Shown in pieces: positions 1,809 to 61,328 of a stretch of DNA of 64,000 nt. The stretch is from Lysobacterales bacterium (GTDB lineage Bacteria > Pseudomonadota > Gammaproteobacteria > Xanthomonadales > SZUA-36). A program made the position numbers and the translations under genes. Position 1 is the first letter of the stretch. Every line of letters starts with the position of its first letter. Location of the stretch: NCBI GenBank assembly GCA_041601535.1, contig JBFIHZ010000001.1:457-64456 (forward strand), in the 5' to 3' direction. The notes below the pieces were generated by a model that worked only from the letters and a program-made list of their open reading frames with translations, did no database searches and was not told the origin of the DNA.

Positions 1809-2365
1809 TGACTAGCGACAGGAGCGAACAGCAGTTGGACGAGTTGCTGGCCGGCTTGCCCAGGGAAATTACGCCGCCACGGGATGTGTGGCAGTCCATT
1901 GCAGCCCGCATCTCGCAGGCGGAACCCGCTGAACGGGAGCGGTTTTCGCGCCGGCCTTCGGTGCTGGCGCTGGCGGCATCCGTGGTGCTGGCGGCTACCG
2001 TTGCCCTGCTGTGGCGCCCGGGTAGTGCACCTGTAAATGAAATTGCGCCACCTGCTCGGCAGCTTGCGCTGGATCAAGTGCCGGTAAATACCTGGTTGCG
2101 GGCCAGCGAGCGTGAATATATGGCGGCATTCAGGGAGTTCATGGTGCTGGCACCGCTTGACCCGCTAACCAGCGAAGTAGCTTCCGGGGTGCGTGATGGC
2201 TGGCTGGCGACACGCGAGGTGGAGCGGCAACTGGATGCCGCTTTGCTGGAAAATCCCGCCGATGAATTTCTGGCGCAACAAATGACCTTACTGAGGGCGC
2301 GTCAACTGGATCTATTACGCCAGGTCGTGGCTGTAGACCGGGCTTCGAGGAGAGAAACGATATGA
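1808..2365 (+). CDS. Putative single-pass anti-sigma factor (no HxxxCxxC zinc motif)
   Basis: Translationally coupled to the sigma gene (TAATG at 1806-1810). Short cytoplasmic N-terminus, one hydrophobic helix (SVLALAASVVLAATVALLW), periplasmic C-terminal domain. Function is inferred from position. Confidence 0.6.
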   Translation: MTSDRSEQQLDELLAGLPREITPPRDVWQSIAARISQAEPAERERFSRRPSVLALAASVVLAATVALLWRPGSAPVNEIAPPARQLALDQVPVNTWLRASEREYMAAFREFMVLAPLDPLTSEVASGVRDGWLATREVERQLDAALLENPADEFLAQQMTLLRARQLDLLRQVVAVDRASRRETI

Positions 2366-3243
2366 ACGTCAGTCGGCTTATTGCCTTTTTACTCATTATA
2401 AGTATGCCGTTCTCGCAGGCCCGAGCCGGCAGCGAAATCGATGAACGGCGTGATCTGGCAGCGGATGCCCGGCTGCAGGTAGAAAATCTCGCCGGCTCGG
2501 TCACGGTTACCACCTGGGACAAGGCCGAGCTGCAAATAAGCGGTGAACTGGGTGATGAAGTAGAAAAACTGGAAATCCTTGAGACCTCTTCCGGCATCCA
2601 TGTGCGGGTAAAAAACCGCAGAAACATACGCAATGTGGATGCGACGCATCTGCGGATCACCATGCCGGCATCAGCCAGCCTGAACGTAGCCAGCGTCAGT
2701 GCTGATCTTACGGCGTCCGCACTCAGCAACCAGGAACTGGTATTGACCACGGTCAGTGGGGATATAGAGGTGCAGGCGGATACCGGCCGGCTGGAGCTTG
2801 AATCGGTAAGCGGTGACATCCGCTTCAGTGGCAATACCCGGCGCTCAGCCATCGAAACGGTCAGCGGCAGAATAGACCTGACTGGATTGACCGCGGAGAT
2901 CAGTGTCAGCACCGTGTCAGGTGACGTGAAACTCACGGCGGCGGACATCAGCCGGGGGCGGTTTGAAACCGTGTCCGGCAAAGTGGCATTGAATGCCAAC
3001 GTGGCCGATGGCGGGCGGCTAAAAGCCCAAAGCATGAGTGGCGACGTCGTGCTTGCTCTGCCGGCTGCGCAGCAGGCCGAATTTTCTGCGCAGACGTTCA
3101 GCGGCAAGATCCGCACCGGGTTTGGCAAGGCCAGTGAGAAGTCATTCGGTGCCGGCAGCAGCCTGAGCCACCGGCAGGGCAATAATGGAGCCAGCATCGA
3201 ACTGGAAAGTTTTAGCGGAGATATCCGGCTGGAGAAAAACTGA
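2362..3243 (+). CDS. Secreted DUF4097-like beta-helix repeat protein
   Basis: ATGA overlap with the anti-sigma gene (2362-2365). Signal peptide MNVSRLIAFLLIISMPFSQARA. About 8-9 iterations of a (T/S)VSGDI/V-containing ~18-20 aa repeat, typical of the DUF4097 putative-adhesin fold. Confidence 0.72.
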   Translation: MNVSRLIAFLLIISMPFSQARAGSEIDERRDLAADARLQVENLAGSVTVTTWDKAELQISGELGDEVEKLEILETSSGIHVRVKNRRNIRNVDATHLRITMPASASLNVASVSADLTASALSNQELVLTTVSGDIEVQADTGRLELESVSGDIRFSGNTRRSAIETVSGRIDLTGLTAEISVSTVSGDVKLTAADISRGRFETVSGKVALNANVADGGRLKAQSMSGDVVLALPAAQQAEFSAQTFSGKIRTGFGKASEKSFGAGSSLSHRQGNNGASIELESFSGDIRLEKN

Positions 3244-3404
3244 TTGCCTGACCGTTGCGCTCAGGCGCAGGCACTACAGTGCCCATCGTACGATATTCCT
3301 TCCTAAAATAAGGCCTGCCGGCTGCGTCTGCGGCCGGTCCGGGGGTGCATCAGGCGGTTGCGGGAACGCCTTCCTGAATCTGTTTGTGGGTCAGAATGTA
3401 TACC

Positions 3405-3418
3405 GGATAACGTTATCC
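3405..3418. promoter_or_regulatory. Perfect 14-nt palindrome GGATAACGTTATCC (candidate operator)
   Basis: Read directly. Central CG with AAC/GTT half-sites resembles LacI/GalR-family operator geometry. It lies 227 nt upstream of the TonB-dependent receptor start. Confidence 0.3.
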
Positions 3419-3456
3419 CGCACTCCGCGCCGGCCTGCAAGCTGCAACTTAATTCT

Positions 3457-3484
3457 GTTAATAGTCCGTTAATTGCAGGTTAAT
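3457..3484. promoter_or_regulatory. Three GTTAAT direct repeats at exact 11-nt phasing in an AT-rich patch
   Basis: GTTAAT at 3457, 3468 and 3479. A related CTTAAT sits at 3448. One-face-of-the-helix spacing suggests a protein-binding array. Confidence 0.3.
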
Positions 3485-3560
3485 AAAGCCTTTCCAATCG
3501 GTTCCGAATGGTGATACTATCCTGCCAAGCTCGGAGATGGCCCTCTCTTGACCTGCGTCT

Positions 3561-3600
3561 GTTGACTTGGGTCAAAGCCGCATTTGATCCGGGTTGACTT
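3561..3600. repeat. GTTGACTT x2 (3561, 3593) plus palindrome TTGAC-N4-GTCAA (3562-3575)
   Basis: Read directly. A fourth TTGAC is at 3548. All lie within 100 nt of the receptor start codon. Confidence 0.4.
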
Positions 3601-3644
3601 CGATCGTAAGACAACCGAACCAAATAAAATTTTGGAGAGTTTAG

Positions 3645-6623
3645 ATGAAACACAGCCGTAATCCTCTGTACCAGGCCGTGCAATATGCACTGGTCCCCAG
3701 TGCAATGGCAGGCTTCGCACTCTCTTCTTCACCTGTTTTCGCACAGGACAGTGAAGATGAGGCGGCAGATCTGGACCGTGTTCAAGTAACCGGTTCCCGT
3801 ATCAGCCGTATTGATATTGAAGGGGCGAACCCTGTAACTGTACTGGATCGTGACGACATCAAGCGCACCGGCATTACTGACCTGGGTGAGTTGGTCCAGG
3901 ATCTGCCGATGATGAGCGGTTCACCGGTTTCCAGCCAGCGTAACAACGGTGGTAGTGGCCGCGTAGCCGTAGACATTCGTGGTTTGGGCACGAACAGAAC
4001 GCTTGTACTTGTTAATGGCAACCGCCTGCCTTCACTGTTCAATGACTTCTCGGTCATTCCGGTGGTAATGGTAGAGCGTATCGAAATCCTGAAAGACGGT
4101 GCTTCAGCAATTTATGGTGCAGATGCTGTTGCTGGTGTAGTAAACATCATCACTCGCCGTGACTTTGAAGGTGCCGAGTTCGAGTTCTCCATCGGCGAAA
4201 GCTTTGATGAAGGAGGCATGAACTACAGCACCAGCTTTATTACGGGTGGTAACTCCGACCGTGGTAACTTTGTAGTTGGTGTGGAATACGTTGAGCAGGA
4301 AGAAGTATTCCTGGCCGCCTACGACGAAAAATACATCAAGGCTGCTGTAACGGTTTATGATCCGGTTGGCTTCAAGCAATTCGGTTTCTCAGGTGATCCC
4401 TGGACGGATGGCGATGGCAACGGTATTGCTGATTGGGGAACGTTTGGTTCTTCACGTCTGCCGTACGGCTTCTTCGATCTGCGTCCGGCTGGTCTGGGCA
4501 ATGGCTGGACCATTTGCCGCGATTCAGCCACCGGTGGCGCCAGTGTCAGCGACTACGGTCCGCGTGACGGCGTATGTAACGAAGCTACTTACGATTTCGC
4601 ACCGGTCAACTACATGCAGACCCCGTACGAGCGTTCCAGCTTCTTCCTGCAGGGTGACTACGAGCTGTTCGAAAACGTCAGTGCCTACGTGGAAGCGCGT
4701 TTCGCCAACCGTAAATCAGAACAGCTGTTGGCTCCACAGCCGTACGACTCGCGTTTTGATCCGGGCTACGCAACTGTCGAACCCGGTGTGGCTATTTCCA
4801 AAGACAACTACTACAACCCGTTTGGTGTGGACATTCCGCAATGGCGCCGCCGCATGGTGGAAACCGGTGGACGTTCATTTATCCAGAACGTTGACCAGTG
4901 GCAGATTGTTACCGGCCTGACCGGTGATATCGCTGGTACCTGGACCTGGGACCTGAGCTACAACTTTGGTCGCAACGAGCGCGCCGATACCGACTTTGGC
5001 CAGTTTAACGGTCAGAACCTGGCTAATGCTCTGGGGCCATCATTCCTGGATCCGGCAACCGGCCAGGTGGTCTGCGGTACGCCGGATGCTCCGATTGCTG
5101 GCTGCGTATCCATGAATGCTTTCTCCAATCCGGATACCAACCCGATTACCCAGGAAATGCTGGCTTACGCTTCTGTGCCGCTGAACGACCGGTACATTAA
5201 CGAGCGTCAGATCACCAACCTGACCCTGGTCGGTGACCTGTTCGAAATGCCTGCCGGTCCGCTGGCTGGCGCTTTCGGTTTCGAACGCCGGACTGAGAAG
5301 TATGACTTTATTCCTGACTCGGCCAAGTCAACCGGTCAAACCACCGGTAACACGGGCCAGGGTACCTCCGGCGCTTATGATGTGGACTCGTTCTTTGGTG
5401 AATTGAATATCCCCATCATTTCCGGTGTGTCTGGTGCCGAACTGCTGGAACTGGGTATCAGTGGCCGCTACGATGATTTCTCAATCTTCGATTCGTCCAC
5501 AACCTGGCAGGGTGCCATTCGCTGGCAGCCGGTCCGCAGCCTGTTGGTTCGTGCGACTGCTGGTCAGGTGTATCGTGAGCCGAACATCTCCGAATTGTTC
5601 GCGGGCGTTGGCGACAGCTTCCCGAACACGGTTGATCCCTGTTCCGGACGCGGCGGTCAGCCGGGTTGTACCAATGTACCCCCGGGTTACGCCCAGTCAG
5701 ATACGCAGGCGCGTGCGCGCATCGGCGGTAACATCAATGTAACGCCGGAAGAAGGCGATACCGTTACCGTGGGTATGGCATGGTCACCGACCTTTGCACC
5801 TGGCTTCAGCATGACCCTGGACTGGTGGAAGATCGAAATTGATGACGCCATCAATATTCCGTCTGCCAACGTGGTTCTGGCCGGCTGTTTCTCCGGTGAC
5901 GTACCCGGGTTCTGTAACAATATCACCCGCTTTGGGCCGGAAGCGTCCAACTACGGCGATTTGCAGCAGATCCTGACCCTGGTACAGAAGGTAGGACCGG
6001 AATCGGCTGAAGGCTTCGACTTCTCGTTCAACTACAACCGCAATACCGACATCGGTCTGTGGGACTTCTCCCTGTACGGAACCTACAACAAGAAGCGTGA
6101 GCAGCTTGTACTGAAGGACTTCGATGCAGACGGTCTCGCCACGGCAGAGGTATCCGACGTTGTGGGTCTGTTCGAGCATCGCGGTCTGGGTCGGCCCAAG
6201 GCATTCCCGGAATGGCGCTGGAGGTTTGACACCGACTGGTCCATGGGTGACTTCGGTCTGAGCCTGAGTGTTGAGTTCATCGACAGTGTTACCGAGTGCG
6301 GTAACCCCAATGCCGATGGTACTTTCCTCACCATGTACTGCCCGGACGATGCTGAAATTGTCGCCATTGACCCGGCTGATACCTACTGGGGCATTCCCAT
6401 CATCGATCGGGCATGGATCAACTCCACCGACAAGGTCTACTACTTTGACCTGGTGGGACGTTACACCATCCCGGGTATTGGCTCGCAGATCACCGCGGGT
6501 ATTACCAACCTGACCGATGAAGAACTGCCGTTCATCAACCAGGGCTTCAACGCCACGACCGATGAAGACACCTTCCGTGCCTTCGGACGTTCCTGGTTTG
6601 TCAGCTTCAAGCACAGCTTCTAA
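3645..6623 (+). CDS. TonB-dependent outer-membrane receptor
   Basis: RBS GGAGAG 3634-3639. Signal peptide ending VFAQD. Plug-domain motifs (DRVQVTGSRI, NPVTVLDRDDI, VDIRGLG, VERIEILKDGASAIYGADAVAGVVNIITR). C-terminal barrel ends ...WFVSFKHSF with a terminal Phe. Confidence 0.93.
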   Translation: MKHSRNPLYQAVQYALVPSAMAGFALSSSPVFAQDSEDEAADLDRVQVTGSRISRIDIEGANPVTVLDRDDIKRTGITDLGELVQDLPMMSGSPVSSQRNNGGSGRVAVDIRGLGTNRTLVLVNGNRLPSLFNDFSVIPVVMVERIEILKDGASAIYGADAVAGVVNIITRRDFEGAEFEFSIGESFDEGGMNYSTSFITGGNSDRGNFVVGVEYVEQEEVFLAAYDEKYIKAAVTVYDPVGFKQFGFSGDPWTDGDGNGIADWGTFGSSRLPYGFFDLRPAGLGNGWTICRDSATGGASVSDYGPRDGVCNEATYDFAPVNYMQTPYERSSFFLQGDYELFENVSAYVEARFANRKSEQLLAPQPYDSRFDPGYATVEPGVAISKDNYYNPFGVDIPQWRRRMVETGGRSFIQNVDQWQIVTGLTGDIAGTWTWDLSYNFGRNERADTDFGQFNGQNLANALGPSFLDPATGQVVCGTPDAPIAGCVSMNAFSNPDTNPITQEMLAYASVPLNDRYINERQITNLTLVGDLFEMPAGPLAGAFGFERRTEKYDFIPDSAKSTGQTTGNTGQGTSGAYDVDSFFGELNIPIISGVSGAELLELGISGRYDDFSIFDSSTTWQGAIRWQPVRSLLVRATAGQVYREPNISELFAGVGDSFPNTVDPCSGRGGQPGCTNVPPGYAQSDTQARARIGGNINVTPEEGDTVTVGMAWSPTFAPGFSMTLDWWKIEIDDAINIPSANVVLAGCFSGDVPGFCNNITRFGPEASNYGDLQQILTLVQKVGPESAEGFDFSFNYNRNTDIGLWDFSLYGTYNKKREQLVLKDFDADGLATAEVSDVVGLFEHRGLGRPKAFPEWRWRFDTDWSMGDFGLSLSVEFIDSVTECGNPNADGTFLTMYCPDDAEIVAIDPADTYWGIPIIDRAWINSTDKVYYFDLVGRYTIPGIGSQITAGITNLTDEELPFINQGFNATTDEDTFRAFGRSWFVSFKHSF

Positions 6624-6658
6624 GCAGTTAACGCTTAGTTACTGAGCCAAGCAGGACG

Positions 6659-6691
6659 AAAAGGCCCCGCCCAGTGCGGGGCCTTTTTTTT
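6659..6691 (+). terminator. Canonical rho-independent terminator after the TonB-dependent receptor
   Basis: AAAA-GGCCCCGC (6663-6670) / loop CCAGT / GCGGGGCC (6676-6683), followed by a run of 8 T (6684-6691). Confidence 0.85.
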
Positions 6692-6774: not shown

Positions 6775-7380
6775 ATGGTCATTTCGCATAAATACCGTTT
6801 TATCTTCATCAAAACCATCAAAACGGCCGGTACCAGTATCGAGGCCTGGTTATCGCCGCGTTGTGGCGCTGAAGATATATTCACGCCGGTTCAGCCGCCG
6901 GTGGAGGGGCATACTCCGAGGAATTTTGGCCGCCTGTATAATCATTTTTCCGCCTGGGGACTGCGTCAGCTGGTTCCGCCGGAAGTCTGGAATGGTTATT
7001 TCAAGTTCTGCGTGGAACGCAATCCCTGGGACAAAACCGTGTCCGACTATGCCATGCAGGCTCACCGCAGCGGCGGTCAGTTAAGCTTTGAGCAATACCT
7101 GCAAGCCGGGCGCTTCTGCAAAAGCTGGGAGCTGTACACCGACACCGATAACCGAACCGTTCTGGTGGACAGGGTACTGCGTTATGAAAACCTCAATGCC
7201 GAACTGGGTGAAGTCTTCCAGAACCTGGGGCTGCCCTGGGAAGGCGAGCTGGGCGTGTATGCCAAGTCCGGCTACCGCCAGAACCGCAAGCCATACCCGG
7301 AATACTACAACGAGCAACAGAAACAGTTGATCGCCCGGGCTTTCAAAGACGAAATTGATGCGTTTGGCTATGCCTTCTGA
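6775..7380 (+). CDS. Sulfotransferase family 2-like protein
   Basis: N-terminal HKYRFIFIKTIKTAGTSIEAWL (5'-phosphosulfate-binding loop), ERNPWDKTVSDY (RxPxDxxxS 3'-phosphate motif) and C-terminal LRYENLNAELGEVFQNLGL motif. Confidence 0.72.
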   Translation: MVISHKYRFIFIKTIKTAGTSIEAWLSPRCGAEDIFTPVQPPVEGHTPRNFGRLYNHFSAWGLRQLVPPEVWNGYFKFCVERNPWDKTVSDYAMQAHRSGGQLSFEQYLQAGRFCKSWELYTDTDNRTVLVDRVLRYENLNAELGEVFQNLGLPWEGELGVYAKSGYRQNRKPYPEYYNEQQKQLIARAFKDEIDAFGYAF

Positions 7381-8194
7381 GTCGCGTGTGCACAAGCCCG
7401 TCATCCGGGTGATACACCATATGGCACGGACCGGCGGCACCCTGATCTGCCGTTGCCTGGCATCCATGGACAACGTGGTGCTGCTCAGTGAGATTCATCC
7501 GCTCGGCTTGAGGATGTTTGACCCATTGCGGCAGGCACATGAGTGGTACGGCCTGCTGACCGAAGCGGATATCGCTTCATTGCGGCAACGCCCGCTGGAG
7601 TTCGCTGAAGCTATCCTGCTGCTCCACCAGCGCTGCAGTGAACAGGGAAAGCACCTGGTTTTGCGCGACTGGAGCCACCTGGATTACACCGGCGTGCCAT
7701 TTGTACGGCCGGCGTTTCGCTCATTGCTGGTGGAAGCCCTGCAGTCGGATTTCAGCGTGTTGCAGATCGCCACCGTGCGCCATCCTCTGGACCAGTGGAT
7801 CAGCCTGACCCGCCAACCGGTTTTCCGTGACAAGCTGCCCATTGCAGACTTTCTTTCAGGCGCATTGCATTTCGCGCGGTTCGCGGTGGACTGCGGCTAT
7901 ATCCGCTACGAGGATTTTACCCGCGAGCACGACACCAGCCTGGTGCAATTGTGTGAAGCGCTGGAGCTTGCCTTTGACCCGCAATACCGTTCCCGCTGGC
8001 GTGATTACACCAATATTACCGGTGATGTGCTGCCGGGAAGGGCTGGCAGTGAAATTACCCCCTTGCCACGGCAGGCAGTTGGCGATGAGGAAACGCAGCG
8101 TGTGATCGAACAAAATGACTATAGGGAGATCCTGCGTTTATTAAACTATTCGGGCCAACAACAGAGTGACCGTGGTGCGCCTGGGACGAATTGA
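7370..8194 (+). CDS. Sulfotransferase-fold protein (intact PAPS-loop-like motifs)
   Basis: IHHMARTGGTLICRCL (P-loop-like), VRHPLDQWISL (RxPxDxxxS) and IRYEDF...LCEALEL. Start is uncertain (TTG 7355, ATG 7358 or ATG 7370). It overlaps the upstream stop at 7378-7380. Confidence 0.55.
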   Translation: MPSESRVHKPVIRVIHHMARTGGTLICRCLASMDNVVLLSEIHPLGLRMFDPLRQAHEWYGLLTEADIASLRQRPLEFAEAILLLHQRCSEQGKHLVLRDWSHLDYTGVPFVRPAFRSLLVEALQSDFSVLQIATVRHPLDQWISLTRQPVFRDKLPIADFLSGALHFARFAVDCGYIRYEDFTREHDTSLVQLCEALELAFDPQYRSRWRDYTNITGDVLPGRAGSEITPLPRQAVGDEETQRVIEQNDYREILRLLNYSGQQQSDRGAPGTN

Positions 8195-8282
8195 TCGGTA
8201 TGCCTTTACGGAAACTTCAGGCAATCTGCAGGGGATACAGCGTCATGCACACCCGGGCCAGGCCGATTGCTCCGGCTGGCGG

Positions 8283-8288
8283 TATAAT
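8283..8288 (+). promoter_or_regulatory. TATAAT hexamer, candidate -10 for the oxygenase-methyltransferase sub-operon
   Basis: Perfect TATAAT 50 nt upstream of ATG 8339, in the only sizeable gap inside the island. No good -35 was seen. Confidence 0.25.
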
Positions 8289-8338
8289 AAACGCCCCGAA
8301 TTGAAAATTGTTGGGGCATTCACTGAGGTTTGACTGAT

Positions 8339-8935
8339 ATGACGGACAATACGGTTGCCGCACTGTTTGGTATTTATGATCGTGCCCTGAGTGCGGAGTT
8401 TTGCCGTGACGTGATCCAGCGGTTTGAGAACGACCCACGCAAAACCCGCGGCAAGGTGGGTGAAGGTGCATACCGCCCCGATTTCAAGGGCACCACGGAA
8501 ATAGATTTTGCGGATATCCGTCAGGGCTGGGAAGACGTGATCAATACCGTCAACCAGAGTCTGATGCTGCACTTGCGGCAATATATGAAGCAGTGGAGTG
8601 AGGCGTTCCAGTCGGTGGAAGTGCATCACGAAGGGTTTCGCATGGCTCGCTACAACCCCGGTGAGCAGTTCAATTGGCATTCGGACAATATCGGTAGTTC
8701 CTTCACCCGGGTGATGACGGTAATGTGGTATCTCAACACCGTGGAAGAAGGCGGTGAGACCGATTACAAGTGGATGGGTCAGGCCATCAAGCCGGTCGAA
8801 GGGCGCATGATGATCTGCCCTGTGGGCTGGCCGTTTTTTCACCGTGGTGCGCCGCCGGTGAGCGGGCCCAAATACACCATCATCACCCAATTGCATCAGA
8901 AGCGCCGGGTGGCGCAGGCCAATACGGGTAGCTGA
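8339..8935 (+). CDS. Fe(II)/2-oxoglutarate-dependent oxygenase, prolyl-4-hydroxylase-like
   Basis: RYNPGEQFNWHSDN (HxD), WYLNTVEEGGETDY and FFHRGAPPVSGPKYTIIT (distal His, basic residue). ATG 8339 with GAGG 9 nt upstream. The ORF track starts at TTG 8330. Confidence 0.72.
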   Translation: MTDNTVAALFGIYDRALSAEFCRDVIQRFENDPRKTRGKVGEGAYRPDFKGTTEIDFADIRQGWEDVINTVNQSLMLHLRQYMKQWSEAFQSVEVHHEGFRMARYNPGEQFNWHSDNIGSSFTRVMTVMWYLNTVEEGGETDYKWMGQAIKPVEGRMMICPVGWPFFHRGAPPVSGPKYTIITQLHQKRRVAQANTGS

Positions 8936-8959
8936 TAGCCACCAGGAGTCAGGATACGC

Positions 8960-9916
8960 ATGACGCAAAGCGGCCACCGGGAATGGGAAAATTACTGGAA
9001 TGAGCCGCGGCTTGCCGCCTGCATGCGTAATGAAGAGGGAAACTACGGCGGCGTGATTGGCCAGGAATGGCACCGGTTTTTCACCTCCCTGCAGAAGCAT
9101 AGCCTGGTGGTGGATCTGGCCACCGGCAACGGTGCCATTGCGCTGTTGGCCCTGCAGGCATCAGACACCGCTGGCCTGGACTTGCAGGTCTGTGGCGTTG
9201 ATGCGGTCGATATTGACCCTGCCCGGGTGCTGCCGCAACTTGCCGGTCAACTGCAAAGAATCAATTTCATAGGCAATACGCAGATGGAGCATTTGCCGTT
9301 TGCAGACCGTTCGGTGCACGCGGTTTCCGGACAGTACGCCCTGGAGTATTCCGACATGGACCTCACCATTGCCGAAATTGCCCGGGTACTGGCGGATTCA
9401 GGCCGGTTGAAATTCATCAGCCATACAACCTCTTCCGCGGTGTACGCAGCCACCCTGAAGCAGCTGCAGGAAATTTCCCAGCTGGAAGGCTGGGACCTGA
9501 CGGGCCGGGTGCAGAAAATGGTGCAAACAGAGCCAGGCACCAGTCCGCATGAACGGGCAAAAAGGGCATTCGGCCGTTGTGCATGCGAAGCCATGCATGC
9601 ACTGGACCGGGCAGAGGGGCAGAACCGTGTATTCCTCACCCAGTTCCTGGCCCGGTTGGGTGAAATTTACCAGCATCGTCACGACCAGCGGAAGAAAAAG
9701 ACTCTGGCTGAACTCAGCGACGTCGATGCTGATTTGAAAGCCCATCAATTACGCCTGGAAAGCCTGCGCAAAGCGGCCCTGAACAAGCCGGCCATCGCCG
9801 CATGTGAACAACTGCTGCAACGTTGTGGATTCTGCCTGCAAGATTCAAGGTCTGTACGCGAGGCGCCGGACCGGCGCCCACTGGGCCATTGTTTTGAAGC
9901 CAGCCTGATCCACTGA
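8960..9916 (+). CDS. Class I SAM-dependent methyltransferase
   Basis: Motif I VVDLATGNGAIA and post-I/II region (FADRSVHAVSGQYALEY). The C-terminal ~150 aa helical extension is of unknown function. Confidence 0.72.
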   Translation: MTQSGHREWENYWNEPRLAACMRNEEGNYGGVIGQEWHRFFTSLQKHSLVVDLATGNGAIALLALQASDTAGLDLQVCGVDAVDIDPARVLPQLAGQLQRINFIGNTQMEHLPFADRSVHAVSGQYALEYSDMDLTIAEIARVLADSGRLKFISHTTSSAVYAATLKQLQEISQLEGWDLTGRVQKMVQTEPGTSPHERAKRAFGRCACEAMHALDRAEGQNRVFLTQFLARLGEIYQHRHDQRKKKTLAELSDVDADLKAHQLRLESLRKAALNKPAIAACEQLLQRCGFCLQDSRSVREAPDRRPLGHCFEASLIH

Positions 9917-9941
9917 GGCTGCTGATGGAACTGCGGTCATC

Positions 9942-11009
9942 GTGAAACTGTCCGCCCCACCGGATTCAAGCCAGTCTGACCTTGTCAGTCCGGACTGGTT
10001 TCTGGCCGGTATCGACCCACCGCATGACCGCTTCCATTTCGCCCGCGTCAGCCAGCAAACCTACCGCGATTCCGCTTTTCTCGATCACCGGATCACACCC
10101 CGGCCAAGTGAGATGCGGTCACTGACCGCTGAGCAACTCTGCCTGCAGTCAGCATCCGCCAGCAATTCTCCGGCCGCATGGATTTTTCACACCGCTTTTT
10201 GCTGTTCTACGCTGTTGGCGTTTTGCCTGGATCAGCCGCAGCACACGCTGGTGCTGCGCGAGCCTGCAGTCGCCTCGTCACTGGCGCAGTGGCTGCGCGA
10301 GCATGGCGAAGAATCCTGGGATGGCGGTGCACGACATGTAATGGCCCTGTTGTCCAGATCGTATGCACAGCAGCAGGTGCTGATCAAGCCGTCCAACTAC
10401 GCCAATGCATTGCTGGGCGGAGTCCTGTCAGGCCGCTGGCTGGATTCCGCCGCCGGGCACGCCCCGCGCTGCCTGTTGATGAGCAGCAACCTCAACAACC
10501 TGGTGGTTTCCGTGCTGAAGAAAAGCACGGAAGCCGCCCGTTTGTTGCCCGGCTTTCTGCAGTCGCTGATGGTGGATAGCGATTACGCTGACAGGCTGAA
10601 CCTGCCCGCCCTGGACCGTCTGGACCTGGCGCAGCAGGCCGTGCTGTTCTGGCATTGCCAGCGCTATCACTTCCAGCAGGTCATGCATGGCCAGCCCTCG
10701 GGCAACTACCAGGCCCTGACCATGGAAGCGTTCCTGGCCTCTCCGGAAGAAACCTTGCACAGCGTGGACACGTTTCTGCATCTGGGCTTGGGACCGGAGC
10801 GCATTCATCAAACCGTTGTGGCTGGTGCGTTTGGCAGGCATTCCAAGGCCGGTGGCACCTACAGTCCGCAGCAGCAACGTGCAGAGGCCCTTCAGGTCAG
10901 TTCGAAATTCGGCGCTGAAATCACCGCGGCCCGGCAGTGGGCCCGGCCATTCTTGCGTGAATTGCCGGTTGAGCCACTGACACCGCAGGAAGACCCATTT
11001 GCCGAATAA
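9942..11009 (+). CDS. Sulfotransferase-fold paralog with degenerate cofactor loops (putative pseudo-enzyme)
   Basis: IFHTAFCCSTLLAFCL aligns with IHHMARTGGTLICRCL of the 7370 gene. LMSSNLNNLVVSVL replaces RxPxDxxxS. It keeps the C-terminal LTMEAFLASPEETLHSVDTFLHLGL motif. GTG start, no clear RBS. Confidence 0.5.
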   Translation: MKLSAPPDSSQSDLVSPDWFLAGIDPPHDRFHFARVSQQTYRDSAFLDHRITPRPSEMRSLTAEQLCLQSASASNSPAAWIFHTAFCCSTLLAFCLDQPQHTLVLREPAVASSLAQWLREHGEESWDGGARHVMALLSRSYAQQQVLIKPSNYANALLGGVLSGRWLDSAAGHAPRCLLMSSNLNNLVVSVLKKSTEAARLLPGFLQSLMVDSDYADRLNLPALDRLDLAQQAVLFWHCQRYHFQQVMHGQPSGNYQALTMEAFLASPEETLHSVDTFLHLGLGPERIHQTVVAGAFGRHSKAGGTYSPQQQRAEALQVSSKFGAEITAARQWARPFLRELPVEPLTPQEDPFAE

Positions 11010-11021
11010 GCCGGGTCTTGC

Positions 11022-11714
11022 TCAGGCTGTGGCTGATGACTCCTGCCAGCGAAAGCTGTAGTTCGCGGCTACGGTGATGCGCGGCAATTTCCCCAGATAG
11101 GGCGTCACCTCATGCTGGATGAAGGAAGGAAACACCAGCAGTTCCCCCGGCTTCATCGGGTAGTTCACTGAGCCGACGTGGTGCGGGCGTTGCCAGTTTG
11201 AATTACCGGCATCACGGTACATGTGCGCGGTGGTGCGCGGATCCTTGAAGTTAAGCGTGCCGCTCAAGGGCAGGTCTGTCGGTGTTTCGCCGGGGTCGAC
11301 CATGTATACCGCCGACCAGGATGCATTGGAATGGATGTGGCTGGATATATAGCCGCCAAAGTGGGTGACGTGATACCAGGCATCCGTTATCACCCGCAAG
11401 CGGCTGCAGTCCTCGGGTGAGTAGCCGTTGGTACTGGCTACCGCGTGCAGCACGCCATGCAGGAAAAACATTTTCAGTTCCTGGATGGCTGGATGAGGGT
11501 CGCGGAACAAGTCAAACGTACTTTCAAATATGCGGACCTGGTTACTCGGAATGTACTCCTTGTTGCGGTACTTCTCGCCTTGCGCCTCCTGTTCCAGGAT
11601 AAGGCCTTTCAGCGCCTCGTTCAGCGCTTTGGGTTGTGGGTAGCTGGCCGAGAATACCGGGGTGGAAAAATCGCCCCAGCTTTTGATTTCAGGTTTTTGT
11701 GTGTTGGCTGGCAT
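11022..11714 (-). CDS. TIGR02466-like putative 2OG-Fe(II) oxygenase family protein
   Basis: GGYISSHIHSNASWSAVYMV and LLVFPSFIQHEVTPY are typical of this family. I prefer ATG 11714 (MPANTQKPEIK, GGGGA 8 nt upstream) over the longer ORF reaching 11807. Confidence 0.68.
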   Translation of the reverse strand: MPANTQKPEIKSWGDFSTPVFSASYPQPKALNEALKGLILEQEAQGEKYRNKEYIPSNQVRIFESTFDLFRDPHPAIQELKMFFLHGVLHAVASTNGYSPEDCSRLRVITDAWYHVTHFGGYISSHIHSNASWSAVYMVDPGETPTDLPLSGTLNFKDPRTTAHMYRDAGNSNWQRPHHVGSVNYPMKPGELLVFPSFIQHEVTPYLGKLPRITVAANYSFRWQESSATA

Positions 11715-11812
11715 ACAGGGTGTCCCCGCGGGTCCAGGTGAAAGAGTCGTGGCTGCCGGCCTGTCTGTCAAGTGGGCAGAACCGCAATCGTGTCCACTGC
11801 CCCGCACAGGGG

Positions 11813-13177
11813 TCAGACCGCCGAGGATTTCAGCTTGCGCGCAATGTCGGCTTTGGCGCTGCGAATCAGCGAATCCCGGTCCAGCGAGTCCTGGATGGCC
11901 TTGGCCACCTCGCGTGGGCCGTTTTTACCCCAGGACTTGCCCCTGGCGAACCAGCTTTGCGCGACCTGGCCGGTCAGGTAGGTTGCGTACCACGCCAGGC
12001 CACCCTGCGCGGACGCCGTTACCACCGTGGATAATCCGGCGCTGGCGGTTTTCATCGCGCTGGACGCCAGATTGATGCCCCAGTAAGCCCCCATCAGGGC
12101 TGCCAGTTGGGCGGAAATGGTCAACACCAGCTTGGCGGCTTCGCGGCGGGACAGGCGAAACCCGTAAACCTCACCGAGGTGAATAACCATGGCCACGTCG
12201 GTGCCGGCCGCTGCGATCAGGTCGGCGATCGGCACCGGGTTGGCGGCCACCACCAGCCCCTTGACCATGCAGTAGTTGCGAATAATGCGTTCGGCCACCG
12301 TTTTACGCGCGGCCACGATGCGGCGGGCGACTTTCTCGTCCAACTCGCTGGCAAATACGGACGCATTGAGCGCCACCAGCGCCTTGCCTTCTTTTTCCAG
12401 CAAGGTCCACAGTACGGAACGCAGTTCACTGACCTCAACCGGGCGGGGCCGGCGGGTTTCACGTTCCGTGCCATCAGGCTCTGCGATGATGACGGTTTCA
12501 TCGCGTGGTTCCGCGGCCGCCGCCAGCACCAGGCTGGCCGGCAGCAAATCAGCTGTGCGCTGGCGCAGGCGTTGCAACAGCAATTGCTGCTCGGAACGGG
12601 TGTAACGGTCCGCTTTATTCAACACCAGGATCACGTTGCGGCCCGCTCTGGCCAATTCATTCAATGCCCGGAATTCCTGTTCGGTAAGGTCTGCCTCGCA
12701 GACAAACAGGATCAGGTCGGCGCGGCGGCTGACCTCCCGAGCGAGTTTCTCGCGCTGCTGTCCATCGAGTTCATCAATGCCGGGTGTGTCAATCAACTGT
12801 ACCCGACCTTGCTGCAGCAGCTGCCACTGGCTGCGGGCTTCCTGTTTGGTTTCGCCATGCAGTGGGCTGGTCTGGAAGCGGTGCTGGCCCAGCAGGGTGT
12901 TCAGCAGGGACGATTTGCCAACGCCAACACGGCCGTATGCTGCAATGTGGATTTCTTCCTGCTGAATCTTATGCGCGATTTGTTCAATCTGCTCAAACTC
13001 TTGCGCCAGTTCAGCGCGCACCGGTGCCGGAATGCTGGAGTCTTCCAGCAGCCTGCCCAGGTTGCTGTAGGCGGCGGCCAGATGGCGTTCCTGTTGCGTG
13101 AGGTCAGGTTTCCCGTTGTCCGTTACGCGTGAGTGCCATTTTTGCAAAACGGACCGCACCGGATTCCAGATTCTCAT
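11813..13177 (-). CDS. GTPase-DUF697 fusion protein (no N-terminal TM)
   Basis: G1 GRVGVGKSS, G3 DTPG, G4 NKAD. C-terminal hydrophobic DUF697-like region (VAANPVPIADLIAAAGTDVAMVIHLGEVYG). ATG 13177 is preceded by GAGGAA with 7-nt spacing. Confidence 0.75.
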   Translation of the reverse strand: MRIWNPVRSVLQKWHSRVTDNGKPDLTQQERHLAAAYSNLGRLLEDSSIPAPVRAELAQEFEQIEQIAHKIQQEEIHIAAYGRVGVGKSSLLNTLLGQHRFQTSPLHGETKQEARSQWQLLQQGRVQLIDTPGIDELDGQQREKLAREVSRRADLILFVCEADLTEQEFRALNELARAGRNVILVLNKADRYTRSEQQLLLQRLRQRTADLLPASLVLAAAAEPRDETVIIAEPDGTERETRRPRPVEVSELRSVLWTLLEKEGKALVALNASVFASELDEKVARRIVAARKTVAERIIRNYCMVKGLVVAANPVPIADLIAAAGTDVAMVIHLGEVYGFRLSRREAAKLVLTISAQLAALMGAYWGINLASSAMKTASAGLSTVVTASAQGGLAWYATYLTGQVAQSWFARGKSWGKNGPREVAKAIQDSLDRDSLIRSAKADIARKLKSSAV

Positions 13178-14564
13178 GTAACAGTTCCTCAAATGCCTGC
13201 GCCGCCGGGAGTGGCCGCAGCTCGCCACGGCTGGCCAGGGTAGCCGCCGCTGCCCGGCCCAGGCTGTCGAATATCATGCCATACGCCACGGCGTGAACCA
13301 TGCCGCCGGTCAGCGTGCCAATGCCGGGAAACGCTTTCAGCGCGTTGCCGGCAATGGCCAGTGTAATGGCGGTCATATTCTTGACCTTGCCACCCGCCAG
13401 CCGCAAAAACGATTCAATCTCCATTTCCTTGACCGGCACGTCGTACAGGCTGGACAGTTCGCGCATCAGTTGCGTGGCCAGTACACCCTGGATCACGAGG
13501 TCGGACCCTGGTGCAACGGCTGCCAGTGCGCCAACCACAGCGCGGCGGGCGTAGCGGCTGACCAGTTCATCGGCCTGCTGGCTGCGATGCCGCGATCGGG
13601 CTGCAAGCAATTTGTCGTTGGCCAGCATCAACACCGCGGTATCCCGCAACGACTCCATCAATTCCCGGTCTCGGTCAAGCAGGCTCTGCACCGCGTGCAG
13701 CAAGGGCAGAATTTCCGCTGGCCGTTGCCGGCTTACCCGTTCTTCAATGCCTTCACCCAGCAGCCGTACCACGTCTTCACGGCCGCCCGCCTGGATGGTT
13801 ACCACGTTCTCGGCAGACAGCCTGGAGTGTTGCTGCAAGCGGTGGCGCAGCTGCTCCAGCTCATCAGCGGTGTAGCGGTCGGATTTGTTCAGTGCCAGCA
13901 CGATCGGCTTGCCCAGTTCCCGCAGCTGGTGCAACTGCCTGGCCTGGCTCGCCGTGAGGTCGCCGTCACACAGAAATATCACCAGATGGGCGCGGCGTGT
14001 TTCCTCCAGCGCCGGCGTTTCTTCGTCAAAATTAAAACCGGGCAGGTCAGCAATAACCACCTGATCCCCGGATGGAGCGGTCCAGCGATAATGCGTTATC
14101 ACCTGCGTGGTACCCGCGCGCGCATCGCAATCTATTTCCGCCTGTGGCAGCAGCGCTTTGACCAGACTGCTCTTGCCGCTACTCACTTCACCGTGGATGG
14201 CGATATACAGTTCGCCACTGGATTTTCGCCGGCGCTGTTCACTGATTTCATCCAGTGCGTGGCTGATATCCACACCCTGGCGCGCTGCTTGCAGCAGATC
14301 GTTCTGCAGGGATTCAGCGTCAGCCGGCGCGGTCGGGGCGGCTGGGCCGGGTTTGCGGGAGGGCCGCAGCCACGACCAGAAGCCGATGGCGGTAACCAGC
14401 GGCAATGCCAGCAGCAGAATGGCATAAGTCCAGCGCAGCCAGGCAGGCGCCTGCTGCAGGTAATTCCACACCGACAAGGCGGTATCGGTGGCCAGCAGGA
14501 ACAGGAACAGCACCACCAGTGCTGCCAGCATAACCACAGCACTGACCAGCCACTTCAGTGGCAT
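13104..14564 (-). CDS. Membrane-anchored GTPase-DUF697 fusion protein
   Basis: Two N-terminal TM helices. G1 GEVSSGKSS, G3 DLPG, G4 NKSD. C-terminal DUF697-like region (AVAPGSDLVIQGVLATQLMRELSSLYD). ATG 14564 has AGGA 6 nt upstream. The ORF extends to GTG 14582. Confidence 0.75.
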   Translation of the reverse strand: MPLKWLVSAVVMLAALVVLFLFLLATDTALSVWNYLQQAPAWLRWTYAILLLALPLVTAIGFWSWLRPSRKPGPAAPTAPADAESLQNDLLQAARQGVDISHALDEISEQRRRKSSGELYIAIHGEVSSGKSSLVKALLPQAEIDCDARAGTTQVITHYRWTAPSGDQVVIADLPGFNFDEETPALEETRRAHLVIFLCDGDLTASQARQLHQLRELGKPIVLALNKSDRYTADELEQLRHRLQQHSRLSAENVVTIQAGGREDVVRLLGEGIEERVSRQRPAEILPLLHAVQSLLDRDRELMESLRDTAVLMLANDKLLAARSRHRSQQADELVSRYARRAVVGALAAVAPGSDLVIQGVLATQLMRELSSLYDVPVKEMEIESFLRLAGGKVKNMTAITLAIAGNALKAFPGIGTLTGGMVHAVAYGMIFDSLGRAAAATLASRGELRPLPAAQAFEELLHENLESGAVRFAKMALTRNGQRET

Positions 14565-14744
14565 GACCCATCCTGCGGCCACTGTGAGGAGGTGCCAGGA
14601 GGCAAGGGGAATGCGTAATTCATGGCCTTATTCTAACAGCCGTTGCATGAAATGCCTTGGGCAGGTACATTGGCAATTACGGGCACCGTGCGCCCTGTTT
14701 CCGTCAGCAGTTCTACGGTTCAATTGCGGTGTCAGGGGGTCACA

Positions 14745-15971
14745 ATGCAGGGCATGAATTCTTCTTTTATGCGGCCCAGGCGGCCGCTTTCCCGTCTTTC
14801 CAGCTCATTGTTTGGAGTGTGCCGCGGCACACCTCCACGGGTTCGCGGCGCCAGCCTGCCCGAGCATTTCAGCTTGTGCCGCCTGGGGCTGGTGCGCCAT
14901 GAATTGCGCACGCCACTGGCAGGCATTATGGGCATGGCCGAGTTGTTGTCCGACTCACCCTTGCGCAGCGAACAGGCTGCCTGGCTGGGCGCCCTGCAGC
15001 AATCCGGACGACAGTTGCAGTGTTTGCTCGAGCGGGTCAGCCGCTCAGGCCTGGCCCCGGTAATGCCGGCCGGACTGAGGCAGCATTCGTTTGATGGCCA
15101 CCGGTTTCTTGAGCAGGTGATGCTGTCACACTGGCCAGAGGCAAAGCGCAAACACCTCGGGCTGTACCTTGAAGTGGACCAGGCGTTACCCACGCAGTGG
15201 CATAGCCATGCGCCGACCTTGCGGCAATTACTGGACAACCTGATCGCCAACAGTCTGAAGTTTACCCAGGCAGGCCATGTGCTGCTCCGTGCGCGATTGC
15301 AAAGACACGCTAGCGCCGCAGGCCCGGCCTTGTCGCTCTGCGTGGAAGATACCGGGGTGGGGTTTTGTGAACAGGCGGACCAGTCGGTTTACGCCGTGCG
15401 TGAACAGGGGCAATGCACCCCGCAGATGGCCATCAGTGGGCGCGGCATGGGATTGCAGATCTGCCGCTACAACACGCAGTTGCTGAAAGGCCAGTTGAGC
15501 AACCAGTCCGTACCGGGCGATGGCAGCCGCTTCGAACTGGTATTGCCGGAGGTGCTCAGGCAACAAGCCAGTGGCATCAGGCAGCGGCCGGCGCTGCTGG
15601 GTACCCTGGTTTGCCTGCTGGGTCTGTCCGGGCCTTTGCGCGCTGTGGTTGAGCACCTGTTGGGTCGACTTGGCATCGGTATTGTGCGGATGCCATCGCA
15701 GCACATGGATCGCTTGCCTGAGGGGGTACAGGTGGTGATCTGTGACCCCGTGCATGCCCGGCGCCTGCGCTGGCTGCCCGGTTTGCATCAGTGGTGCGCG
15801 CAAGCCATGCTGCTGTCGCCGGATTATCAGGTGTCCGATAGTGGAGCGCCAGGCCCACCCAGGCTGGCCTGTACCGCCTTGCCTCAACCAGTGATCCGCT
15901 CCAACCTGGAGCCTTTGCTGTTACAAGTGGCACTGCAGCGCGCGCTGCAGGCCGGAAAAGGGCTGGAATGA
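14745..15971 (+). CDS. Soluble sensor histidine kinase with a C-terminal receiver-like (degenerate) region
   Basis: H-box LVRHELRTPLAGIMGMAELL, N-box DNLIANSLKFT, G1 VEDTGVGF, G2 GRGMGLQICR. No TM segment. ATG 14745 with AGGGGG upstream. Confidence 0.72.
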   Translation: MQGMNSSFMRPRRPLSRLSSSLFGVCRGTPPRVRGASLPEHFSLCRLGLVRHELRTPLAGIMGMAELLSDSPLRSEQAAWLGALQQSGRQLQCLLERVSRSGLAPVMPAGLRQHSFDGHRFLEQVMLSHWPEAKRKHLGLYLEVDQALPTQWHSHAPTLRQLLDNLIANSLKFTQAGHVLLRARLQRHASAAGPALSLCVEDTGVGFCEQADQSVYAVREQGQCTPQMAISGRGMGLQICRYNTQLLKGQLSNQSVPGDGSRFELVLPEVLRQQASGIRQRPALLGTLVCLLGLSGPLRAVVEHLLGRLGIGIVRMPSQHMDRLPEGVQVVICDPVHARRLRWLPGLHQWCAQAMLLSPDYQVSDSGAPGPPRLACTALPQPVIRSNLEPLLLQVALQRALQAGKGLE

Positions 15972-15984
15972 CCTGCCGCCGGCC

Positions 15985-17055
15985 TCAATCACCGGCCTGG
16001 TGGAAGGCCGGGCTGTACTCCGCCACTGCACGGATAAGACCATCCAGGTGGTCGGGATTGACATCAGGTGTAATGCCGTGGCCCAGGTTGAACACATGGC
16101 CCGGGCCTTTGCCAAAACTGTCCAGCACCTGTTCGGCCTCATGGCGGATCACTTGCGGGCTGGCCAACAGGATGGCCGGGTCCAGGTTACCCTGCAGCGC
16201 TACCCGATCGCCCACGCGGGCCCGGGCTTCGGCCAGGGAGATGGTCCAGTCAACACCCAGCGCGTCGCAGCCGGTATCTGCCTGCGCTTCCAGGTGGGCA
16301 TTACAGTTTTTGCAGAACAGGATGACCGGCACCGGGTTGCCATCGTGCTGACGTTCCAGCCCTTCGACGATACGTGCCAGGTACTGCAGCGAGAAGGCCT
16401 GGTAGGCCGGGGGCGACAGCACGCCACCCCAGGTATCGAACAGTTGCACCGCCTGGGCACCCGCGCGAATCTGCGCATTCAGGTAAGCGGTTACCGCGTC
16501 GGCCAAGCGGCCCAGCAGATCATGTGCCAGCGCCGGCTCGTTGTAGATCATCTGTTTGACGAGGTTAAACGTTTTGCTTGAACCCCCTTCCACCATGTAG
16601 GTGGCCAGGGTCCATGGGCTGCCGCTGAACCCGATCAGCGGCACCCGGCCATCGAGTTCCCGGCGTGTGACACTGATGGCATCCATGACGTACCCCAGTG
16701 AATCGGCGATGTCCAGTTTTGGCAGTTGTTTCACCTGTTCAGCGGAGCGGATCGGGCGCTCAAACTTGGGGCCTTCACCTTCTGAAAAGTACAGGCCCAG
16801 GCCCATCGCATCGGGAATGGTAAGAATATCCGAGAAAATGATGGCGGCGTCCAGGTCAAATCGTCTCAGCGGTTGCAGCGTCACTTCGCAGGCCAGTTCC
16901 GGCGTACGGCACAGGTTCATAAAACTCCCGGCCTGCGCGCGGGTGTTGAGGTATTCGGGCAGGTAGCGGCCGGCCTGGCGCATGATCCACACCGGGGTGC
17001 GGTCCACCGGCTGGCGCAGCAGGGCGCGAATGATTCGGTCGTTTTTCAGGGTCAT
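15985..17055 (-). CDS. hemE: Uroporphyrinogen decarboxylase
   Basis: [35 protein letters not shown] and full-length similarity to HemE. Confidence 0.95.
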
Positions 17056-17087
17056 TGCGGTATTTCCTGGTGTTTGGGGTGGCCGCT

Positions 17088-18176: not shown

Positions 18177-18177
18177 T

Positions 18178-18747: not shown

Positions 18748-18835
18748 CGTGCCGCCGCCTTAAATCCAACGTGCACGACGTGTGAACTTTGGGTACCATG
18801 GCGGAACTTTTTTCACACCTTCTTTTCCATTCCAG

Positions 18836-37623: not shown

Positions 37624-37657
37624 TAGCAGGCCCTTTATTATCCAGGAGTCAGAAAAC

Positions 37658-38665: not shown

Positions 38666-38680
38666 CCCGGATTATCCAGC

Positions 38681-59852: not shown

Positions 59853-59867
59853 TCGCCGGAGGATTAC

Positions 59868-61232: not shown

Positions 61233-61328
61233 AGCATATAGAAGGCCAGCCAGTTGCTGGCCTTCTGCCTTGTCACGAAGGGAATCGTGTCATACTCACC
61301 GCATGACCGTGGATCAGTCCAGACCAGG

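Follow-up and report, generated by a model that had tools for sequence, protein, structure and literature searches.

The DNA analysed here is a stretch of 64,000 nt from a Lysobacterales bacterium (GenBank assembly GCA_041601535.1, contig JBFIHZ010000001.1, positions 457 to 64,456 of the forward strand), called the window below. Our subject is an island of six tightly packed genes at 6775–11714, encoding sulfotransferase-fold proteins, oxygenases and a methyltransferase, which follows the gene of a TonB-dependent outer-membrane receptor. Five genes lie on the + strand and converge on a sixth on the − strand, as an earlier reading of the letters alone (the sequence-only reading) had described. 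The first, g1 (6775–7380, +, 201 aa), encodes a Sulfotransfer_2-type sulfotransferase. The ATG of the second, g2 (7370–8194, +, 274 aa), which encodes a Sulfotransfer_3-type sulfotransferase, lies within g1, giving an overlap of 11 nt. They are followed by g3 (8339–8935, +, 198 aa), for a prolyl-4-hydroxylase-like (P4H-like) Fe(II)/2-oxoglutarate (2OG) oxygenase of the 2OG-FeII_Oxy_3 type; g4 (8960–9916, +, 318 aa), for a class I S-adenosylmethionine (SAM) methyltransferase (Methyltransf_25/11) whose C-terminal half is helical; and g5 (9942–11009, +, 355 aa), for a protein with a sulfotransferase fold, from a family without a Pfam or NCBIfam model. Converging on g5 is g6 (11022–11714, −, 230 aa), which encodes an oxygenase-like protein of the TIGR02466/2OG-FeII_Oxy_5 type. 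Where the island genes do not overlap, gaps of 144, 24, 25 and 12 nt separate them.

The third-position GC content of the island open reading frames (ORFs), 0.65–0.71, was like that of the surrounding genes. Some start codons were refined after the gene calls of a 96% identical relative (locus L089, assembly GCA_025491055.1); that of g2 is the start of the 274-aa gene call there. Compared with L089, the ratio of nonsynonymous to synonymous substitution rates (dN/dS) was 0.11 for g1, 0.20 for g2, 0.015 for g3, 0.13 for g4, 0.26 for g5 and 0.12 for g6, and at such values all six genes are therefore kept by purifying selection. Judged from these low ratios and from orthologs in many genomes, the six ORFs are genuine genes and not chance ORFs. 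A 285-aa ORF antisense to g3 and g4 (8243–9100, −) had no gene support and is typical of high-GC antisense frames. None of the six island proteins carries a signal peptide, and their products are therefore cytoplasmic. All the motifs that the sequence-only reading had quoted for them (KTAGTS, RNPWDKTVS, ARTGGT, RHPLDQWIS, HSD...H and VVDLATGNG) were found in the sequence and in conserved columns, and its sulfotransferase, P4H-like, TIGR02466 and SAM methyltransferase assignments were borne out by profiles or folds, as follows.

Both g1 and g2 contain the 5′-phosphosulfate loop (K/R-x-G-T/S-T/S) and the 3′-phosphate motif (R-x-P-x-D-x-x-x-S) that bind 3′-phosphoadenosine 5′-phosphosulfate (PAPS). 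The g1 motifs, K16-T-A-G-T-S21 and R82-N-P-W-D-K-x-x-S90 (ERNPWDKTVS), are intact, and their residues are invariant in an alignment of a family with more than 3000 homologs. Pfam gave no match on g1 itself; 34 of 46 of its homologs matched Sulfotransfer_2 (PF03567), and neither sequence nor profile searches of the PDB with g1 gave a meaningful match. The g2 motifs, ARTGGT and RHPLDQWIS, are likewise intact and lie in invariant or nearly invariant columns. For Sulfotransfer_3 (PF13469), g2 itself scored below the cutoff and 45 of 52 of its homologs matched. The AlphaFold2 (AF2) model of g2 had a predicted local distance difference test score (pLDDT) of 91, and its significant Foldseek matches in the PDB were essentially only sulfotransferases. 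The best of these were the sulfotransferase domains of the olefin synthase (OLS) and of CurM (E 6e-8 and 1.5e-7; template modelling (TM) score 0.61–0.63), and tyrosylprotein sulfotransferases (TPSTs) ranked next. On these grounds the two proteins are expected to use PAPS.

The third protein of this fold, g5, matched nothing in Pfam or NCBIfam. Its AF2 model was confident (pLDDT 92.5, predicted TM-score (pTM) 0.91), and its significant Foldseek matches in the PDB were again essentially only sulfotransferases. The CurM sulfotransferase was the top match, and the best TM-scores in the list, up to 0.61, belonged to TPST 1 and 2. A profile of the g5 family found sulfotransferases alone among PDB sequences, and g5 proteins were reached by iterated searches seeded with Sulfotransfer_3 domains. 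The residues D48, R50, H83, F86, S89, T90, E107, P108, K149 and W237 are invariant in the family. The loop at the PAPS-loop site is non-canonical, H83-T-A-F-C-C-S-T90 (consensus HTAFCCSTLL), and contains no basic residue; a second motif reads K149-P-[ST]-N, and the protein departs from the canonical 5′-loop and 3′-phosphate motifs. E107, which follows the second strand, and K149 may correspond to the catalytic Glu and Lys of TPSTs. We also considered g1, g2 and g5 as recent paralogs, and rejected this: profile–profile comparison was only marginal (E 4e-4 and 1.5e-3) and covered partial regions. By their profiles, the three proteins represent three different sulfotransferase-fold families. Thus the description of g5 as a degenerate sulfotransferase paralog stands as to the fold, but the protein is not decayed, is no paralog of g1 or g2 and has invariant residues of its own.

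Relatives of g5 were present in 484 species-representative genomes, with taxa that include Lysobacterales, Wenzhouxiangellaceae, Colwellia, Halioglobus, Maricaulis, Oceanicaulis, Sphingomonas, Phenylobacterium and Rhizomicrobium, and an exhaustive profile search returned 1463 clusters at 50% identity with E<=1e-30. On this sequence evidence g5 is a distinct conserved family, the most widely shared gene of the related clusters and their anchor in alpha- and gammaproteobacteria.

Of the two oxygenases, g3 matched PF13640 with E 5.5e-11 and 43.7 bits (cutoff 27). Its metal residues are an H-S-D and a distal H in FFHRG, and this HSD...H set lies in invariant or nearly invariant columns. Among solved structures, bacterial and algal prolyl-4-hydroxylases come closest (E 1.7e-5). 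The g3 family is common in cyanophages, with 456 matching phage records, mostly of Synechococcus phages, and identities of 31–34% among the matches listed. The g6 protein scored 68.5 bits against TIGR02466 (cutoff 62.5) and 62.5 bits against PF13759 (E 5e-17). The structures closest to it, 3bvc and 2rg4, are uncharacterised; in an alignment, PDB 3bvc shares the SHIHSN and IQHEV motifs of g6. The metal motif of g6 is H-x-H, not H-x-D, in a family (TIGR02466/2OG-FeII_Oxy_5) without a characterised member. A g6 homolog was found in cyanophage AS-1.

The methyltransferase g4 matched Methyltransf_25 and Methyltransf_11 above the Pfam cutoffs, as well as NCBIfam models, and its VVDLATGNG lies in an invariant or nearly invariant column of the family alignment. 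The gene is present in L089 and absent from all seven of the more distant relatives with the island, among them loci L002, L003 and L010–L013, and a methyltransferase homologous to it (E 3e-39) occurs in L007. Judged from this distribution, g4 is a lineage-specific accessory that recurs beside g5 elsewhere, in other lineages also fused to it in register. In L007 (8955–11020) and L075 (3–1759) a g4-like methyltransferase gene runs 4 nt into the g5 homolog, and the corresponding gap in the window is 25 nt. The overlap in these other lineages suggests translational coupling. A literature search for TIGR02466, the g5 family and TPR-sulfotransferases found no characterising paper, and one for SapC, Pass1 and tryptophan halogenase found nothing functional.

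The receptor gene upstream (3645–6623, +) encodes 992 aa with a signal peptide, a plug and a barrel, and is the longest ORF of the 64-kb window. Its gene call in L001 contained Pfam Plug and TonB_dep_Rec; against NCBIfam all matches were below cutoff and covered the plug only, and no named receptor equivalog was found. Between the receptor gene and g1 lies an intrinsic-terminator-like hairpin (6658–6688, +), with a 13-bp stem of which 8 pairs are GC, followed by a T-tract to 6697. The hairpin is kept in 6 loci, and its arms vary by locus yet remain complementary (GGCCCCGC/GCGGGGCC vs GGCCACCCC/GGGGTGGCC). In L003 (~9960–10000) and L011 (~7930–7982) the T-tract ends ~10–25 nt before the g1 ATG, and the Shine–Dalgarno sequence of g1 lies inside those ~10–25 nt. 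This leaves no room for a promoter after the hairpin, and transcripts of g1–g5 must therefore cross it in these two loci. A scan for a sigma-70 promoter of g1 found none; a weak TTGACG-N18-TGATAT can be read by eye and was given no weight. From this layout, the receptor and the island are probably co-transcribed, and the hairpin would probably be an intra-operon attenuator or an mRNA 3′-end stabiliser, not an insulator, setting receptor expression above that of the enzymes. The strong terminator of the sequence-only reading is thus a real hairpin, but one that does not insulate the island from the receptor gene, as the read-through in L003 and L011 indicates.

The same neighbourhood was found in relatives. 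Receptor, hairpin, g1, g2, g3, g5, g6 on the opposite strand and a pair of GTPase genes occur in the same order in L002 and L009 (Elongatibacter), L003 and L010–L013, with protein identities of 40–85% among close relatives; L014 is a 2.7-kb fragment with only g5, g6 and one GTPase gene. An extra Sulfotransfer_2 gene precedes g1 in L002. All six island genes stand in the window's order in L089, so the six-gene order is conserved there but without the methyltransferase in L002, L003 and L010–L013. The closest named organism is Elongatibacter sediminis (Wenzhouxiangellaceae), and the full island was seen in one clade only, Wenzhouxiangellaceae/Lysobacterales.

Homologs are also co-located in distant genomes, in varying form. 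Several uncultured gammaproteobacteria combine g5 with a TonB-dependent receptor, an Oxy5 and an Oxy3 oxygenase, a TPR-/AspH-sulfotransferase, a TPR-AspH protein, an Ofd1-like Oxy3 and a Sel1-Oxy3. Locus L007, at the same chromosomal site beside hemE-aroB-aroK, has three receptors, the methyltransferase, g5 and an Oxy3 gene. In L053, a metagenome-assembled genome of Pseudomonadales (12952–18624), genes for a FecI-type extracytoplasmic function (ECF) sigma factor, FecR and a receptor directly flank eleven tailoring genes, with two g5 copies, a Sulfotransfer_2 gene, a TPR-sulfotransferase, AspH, Oxy3, Oxy5 and a methyltransferase among the contents. The arrangement is one of cell-surface signalling and differs from the RpoE-like sigma/anti-sigma/DUF4097 set of the window. 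In Colwellia, g5 has a TonB2-type system on one side and a receptor on the other. In raw counts over 49 distant g5 loci with full flanks, many of them from Maricaulis and hence not independent, an Oxy3, Oxy5 or AspH oxygenase lay within 10 kb in 33 and within 3 kb in 28, another sulfotransferase was found in 16 and a receptor in 19. In many distant loci g6-type genes accompany g5 without GTPases. The g5 homolog of L030 (Oceanicaulis alexandrii, 7324–12042) lies between homogentisate-dioxygenase-like and fumarylacetoacetate hydrolase genes, with no receptor or 2OG oxygenase nearby; this setting may hint at a substrate derived from an aromatic amino acid, or be a coincidence.

The receptors that accompany g5 were compared with that of the window. 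Those of g5 clusters in Colwellia, Lysobacter, Vulcaniibacterium, Agrilutibacter and other gammaproteobacteria align with it over the full length at 30–46% identity, whereas an unrelated neighbouring receptor aligned over the plug only, at 24% identity. Because the g5-adjacent gammaproteobacterial receptors align full-length and the unrelated one only over the plug, the link to the receptor appears specific.

Further units of related content lie elsewhere in the window. A gene for a predicted outer-membrane protein with a signal peptide (31442–32611, −, 389 aa) is followed by one for a P4H-like 2OG oxygenase (30758–31318, −), 30% identical to g3 (E 6e-24), and behind this by one for a TPR + Sulfotransfer_3 protein (29059–30699, −), for which an exact look-up gave no record. 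The outer-membrane protein was considered as a constant partner of this second cassette and rejected: among related metagenome loci, the oxygenase was present in 4 of the 51 that hold the 389-aa outer-membrane protein with room downstream, and the sulfotransferase in 2 of the 25 with room for it. Since the oxygenase occurs in only 4 of 51 loci that keep the outer-membrane protein, the oxygenase/sulfotransferase pair is an inserted cassette. A third TPR + Sulfotransfer_3 gene (39874–41577, −, 567 aa) converges on tkt-gap-pgk (35614–39859). In Halioglobus (L080) a g5 pair likewise lies beside fba-pgk-gap-tkt, possibly a recurrent insertion site. With these further P4H-like and TPR-sulfotransferase genes, the genome abounds in hydroxylase/sulfotransferase units; they support hydroxylation followed by sulfation as a recurring logic, and give no support to a fixed outer-membrane partner.

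As to the flanks, the receptor gene is preceded by genes for an ECF sigma factor (1233–1808, +; NCBIfam sigma70-ECF match), a single-pass anti-sigma factor (1808–2365, +) and a secreted DUF4097/LiaG-like protein (2362–3243, +; NCBIfam LiaG-like match), a trio that also precedes the receptor in L002, L003, L013 and L089. On the other side lies a tandem, overlapping pair of GTPase genes with DUF697 membrane domains (11813–14582, −; slr1306 family, below cutoff), upstream of g6 in the same orientation, with g6 98 nt downstream of the pair. The GTPase pair goes with the island in close relatives that keep the island and occurs in no distant locus. Beyond it are core genes for a histidine kinase, hemE, aroB, aroK, pdxH, yggT, yggS and pilT/U. 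A 191-aa exosortase EpsH-like ORF (18782–19357), which matches the C-terminal part of the Pfam model only and is present at the same place in L007 and L089, may be a truncated exosortase or a short paralog. The window ends (55706–64000) with genes for a Lipase_bact_N protein, a DUF1302 outer-membrane protein and an MMPL/RND-like protein, apparently unrelated to the island.

The model that we favour, tentatively and at a little under an even chance, is that of a receptor-coupled cytoplasmic tailoring module with a small ligand-related substrate. The island would supply accessory enzymes to the TonB-dependent receptor whose gene lies just upstream. The oxygenases g3 (P4H-like) and g6 (TIGR02466) would add hydroxyls, to which g1 and g2, and possibly the atypical g5, would then O-transfer sulfate from PAPS; in the window's lineage, g4 could O-methylate hydroxyls too. 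The substrate, which the island itself does not encode, would most likely be a small amino-acid- or peptide-like compound, either the ligand of the receptor or a precursor of it, which would be tailored for release and re-uptake or else processed after uptake. We infer the use of PAPS, the order of the reactions, the nature of the substrate and a functional dependence on the receptor. The sequence-only reading had seen a tailoring-only set with a substrate made or imported elsewhere and a possible link to the receptor, and was right that 6775–11714 holds no glycosyltransferase, polyketide synthase (PKS) or non-ribosomal peptide synthetase (NRPS), exporter or precursor peptide; the results above support that picture.

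Several observations weigh against this model. No inner-membrane importer, exporter, scaffold-forming enzyme or PAPS-synthesis gene was found in the island or its immediate flanks, nor any PAPS-synthesis gene among the window genes scanned with Pfam; among the larger ORFs scanned in the rest of the window there were a Na:alanine symporter and a weak MMPL match, neither near the island. About 60% of the distant g5 loci have no receptor within 10 kb, and receptor adjacency of ~40% could be chance in receptor-rich alphaproteobacteria. It would be just as plausible for g6 to close the GTPase operon. A search for Fur boxes (at least 12 of 19 matches in a 19-mer) ahead of the receptor, g1 and the ECF sigma gene, in the window and four relatives, found none, with the sole exception of one A-rich chance match in L003, and Rfam gave no match in the whole window at the gathering score and none in 3100–3800 at E<=1. 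Iron or a known ligand is therefore indicated neither by a Fur box nor by a riboswitch or any other Rfam element, and siderophore or iron regulation was rejected for want of the Fur box. The missing importer, exporter, scaffold enzyme, PAPS-synthesis gene, Fur box and riboswitch also count against every alternative discussed below. Finally, several partner enzymes in other lineages carry TPR or Sel1 repeats or are of the Asp/Asn β-hydroxylase and Ofd1-like families; these partners, together with the TPST matches of g5, fit a protein better than a small-molecule substrate.

The last point leads to the strongest alternative, a protein-modifying system in which Pro, Asp or Asn residues of a cytoplasmic polypeptide are hydroxylated and Tyr or the new hydroxyls are sulfated. 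Such a system might act on the receptor precursor ahead of its Sec export, or on a different envelope or secreted protein whose gene lies elsewhere. Prolyl-4-hydroxylases are the nearest solved relatives of g3, and TPST 1 and 2 are matched by g2 as well as g5. The TPR-AspH, TPR-sulfotransferase, Sel1-oxygenase and Ofd1-like proteins of related clusters are typical of protein-directed enzymes, and the receptor is the only recurrent non-enzyme gene of the clusters. For a related neighbourhood class, moreover, Iyer et al. (2010; PMC2938197) predicted that co-encoded proteins are hydroxylated and then sulfated. However, the island encodes no collagen-like, tail-collar or other candidate substrate, TPR and Sel1 domains are absent from g1–g3, g5 and g6, and many g5 loci have no receptor. 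The outer-membrane protein of the second cassette stays in 47 of 51 loci that lack the oxygenase, so that its adjacency is incidental. We also know of no precedent for the modification of an outer-membrane receptor before its export. On balance a protein substrate is possible but rather unlikely. A more specific form of it, which we regard as distinctly unlikely, would make the g5 family a new enzyme class in which a Cys-containing, non-basic loop replaces the PAPS loop; g5 would be the obligate cytoplasmic partner of a TonB-receptor subfamily, and the surrounding hydroxylases and sulfotransferases would act on the receptor precursor, or on some other envelope protein, ahead of export. If this were true, outer-membrane transport would depend on cytoplasmic protein hydroxylation and sulfation.

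It is also improbable that the genes are unrelated neighbours, or modifiers of an envelope lipid or polysaccharide made elsewhere, with the receptor link as inherited synteny and g6 in the GTPase operon. The restriction of the full island to one clade would fit such an arrangement, as would the orientation and 98-nt distance of g6 relative to the GTPase pair and the occurrence of ~50%-identity g1 homologs in unrelated contexts; the Sulfotransfer_2 and AspH/LpxO families include carbohydrate- and lipid-directed enzymes. But in alpha- and gammaproteobacteria g5 is surrounded time and again by these same families, with varying order and orientation, a pattern that indicates selection for co-location and not inherited synteny. 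The g6-type genes found beside g5 without GTPases in many loci count against it as well, and the inspected loci contained no glycosyltransferase, lipid A, Wzx/Wzy or export genes. An O-antigen, capsule or exopolysaccharide cluster was rejected, since no glycosyltransferase, Wzx/Wzy, ABC export or sugar-nucleotide gene was found among the Pfam-annotated genes of the window flanks or of L002, L003, L006, L007, L008 and L089; in no relative does the locus lie inside an O-antigen or capsule cluster.

The weakest alternative, that sulfation is transient, with an oxygenase-made hydroxyl sulfated as a leaving group for elimination or ring closure to a sulfate-free product in the style of CurM, the olefin synthase or LGS1, is very unlikely: the structural matches of g2 to the activating sulfotransferases of the olefin synthase and CurM, the CurM match at the top of the g5 list, the presence of LGS1 in both lists and the consideration that three different sulfotransferase folds acting on one substrate would be unusual for mere decoration speak for it, but the island comes without a gene for a thioesterase, a carrier protein or acyl handling, fold likeness at TM ~0.6 does not define chemistry, and the idea is a refinement of the favoured model and not independent of it.

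Bacterial PAPS-dependent sulfation of metabolites and proteins is rare and poorly mapped, and TonB-dependent receptors of aquatic and soil proteobacteria often have cytoplasmic tailoring-enzyme genes behind them; to our knowledge the Caulobacter receptor CciT and its partner CciO are the only genetic proof of a partnership between a receptor and a cytoplasmic enzyme. The island is an unusually complete and compact example, in which a single receptor is combined with two oxygenases, three sulfotransferase folds and a methyltransferase and with no further genes, and g5 is an unannotated sulfotransferase-fold family that marks such clusters. The product of the island, once found, would be a new class of sulfated ligand or a new type of protein modification, and conservation in the cultured relative Elongatibacter sediminis makes the system experimentally approachable.

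Four known systems bear comparison with the island. Ribosomal-peptide sulfation of the RaxST/RaxX type, which has a precursor peptide and a RaxA/RaxB-type exporter, was rejected: no precursor peptide gene, and no ABC or type I secretion system (T1SS) genes in the flanks, were found. The gaps have no room for a precursor peptide, no small ORF is conserved, and a 38-aa call of L003 has no counterpart in the window. The structures of human TPST1/2 match g5 and g2, and no sequence-level match to the TPST or RaxST families was found. The sulfotransferase domains of CurM and the Synechococcus olefin synthase (PDB 4gbm, 4gox) share PAPS-type loop motifs with g2. However, they are domains of PKS megasynthases that act on carrier-bound β-hydroxyacyl chains, whereas the island proteins stand alone, at an identity of 11–16%, and no PKS, acyl carrier protein (ACP) or thioesterase gene was found near the island.

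A parallel in architecture is offered by Caulobacter crescentus, in which the function of the receptor CciT depends strictly on CciO, a cytoplasmic 2OG dioxygenase encoded next to it, by a mechanism that was left open (Hernandez-Ortiz et al. 2025; PMC12004947); the pair is homologous to Fiu-YbiX of E. coli and PiuA-PiuC of Pseudomonas (PMC12004947). As there, a TonB receptor gene is followed, in what is probably one operon, by a cytoplasmic 2OG-FeII_Oxy_3 gene, a likeness of architecture only. We considered g3 as a YbiX/PiuC ortholog and rejected it (E 0.1 against E. coli YbiX and no NCBIfam PKHD-type match), and likewise the receptor as Fiu, the alignment being restricted to the plug. Unlike CciT-CciO, the island adds three sulfotransferase-fold proteins, a second oxygenase and a methyltransferase, and has no Fur box.

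The sequence-only reading could not match the arrangement to any characterised pathway. No characterised pathway indeed fits, but the type of neighbourhood has been described: by comparative genomics, Iyer et al. (2010; PMC2938197) found cyanophage-related 2OG dioxygenases beside TonB-like receptors, sulfotransferases, tryptophan halogenases, SapC and sometimes NRPS genes, and predicted an amino-acid-derived, siderophore-like metabolite as the product or target. The island shares with this class a TonB-class receptor, at least two unrelated cyanophage-related 2OG dioxygenases, and sulfotransferases and a methyltransferase of kinds predicted to act on the newly made hydroxyls; it is kept at 8 close loci, and variable forms of it occur in distant taxa. 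It differs in that tryptophan halogenases, SapC, JmjC, prenyltransferases or NRPS genes are usual in the class, and none of these is present in the island. Conversely, the class was described without the g5 family, the hairpin or the fixed g1-g2-g3-g5-g6 order of the island. The island is thus a variant of a receptor-linked cluster type that is known computationally and experimentally uncharacterised.

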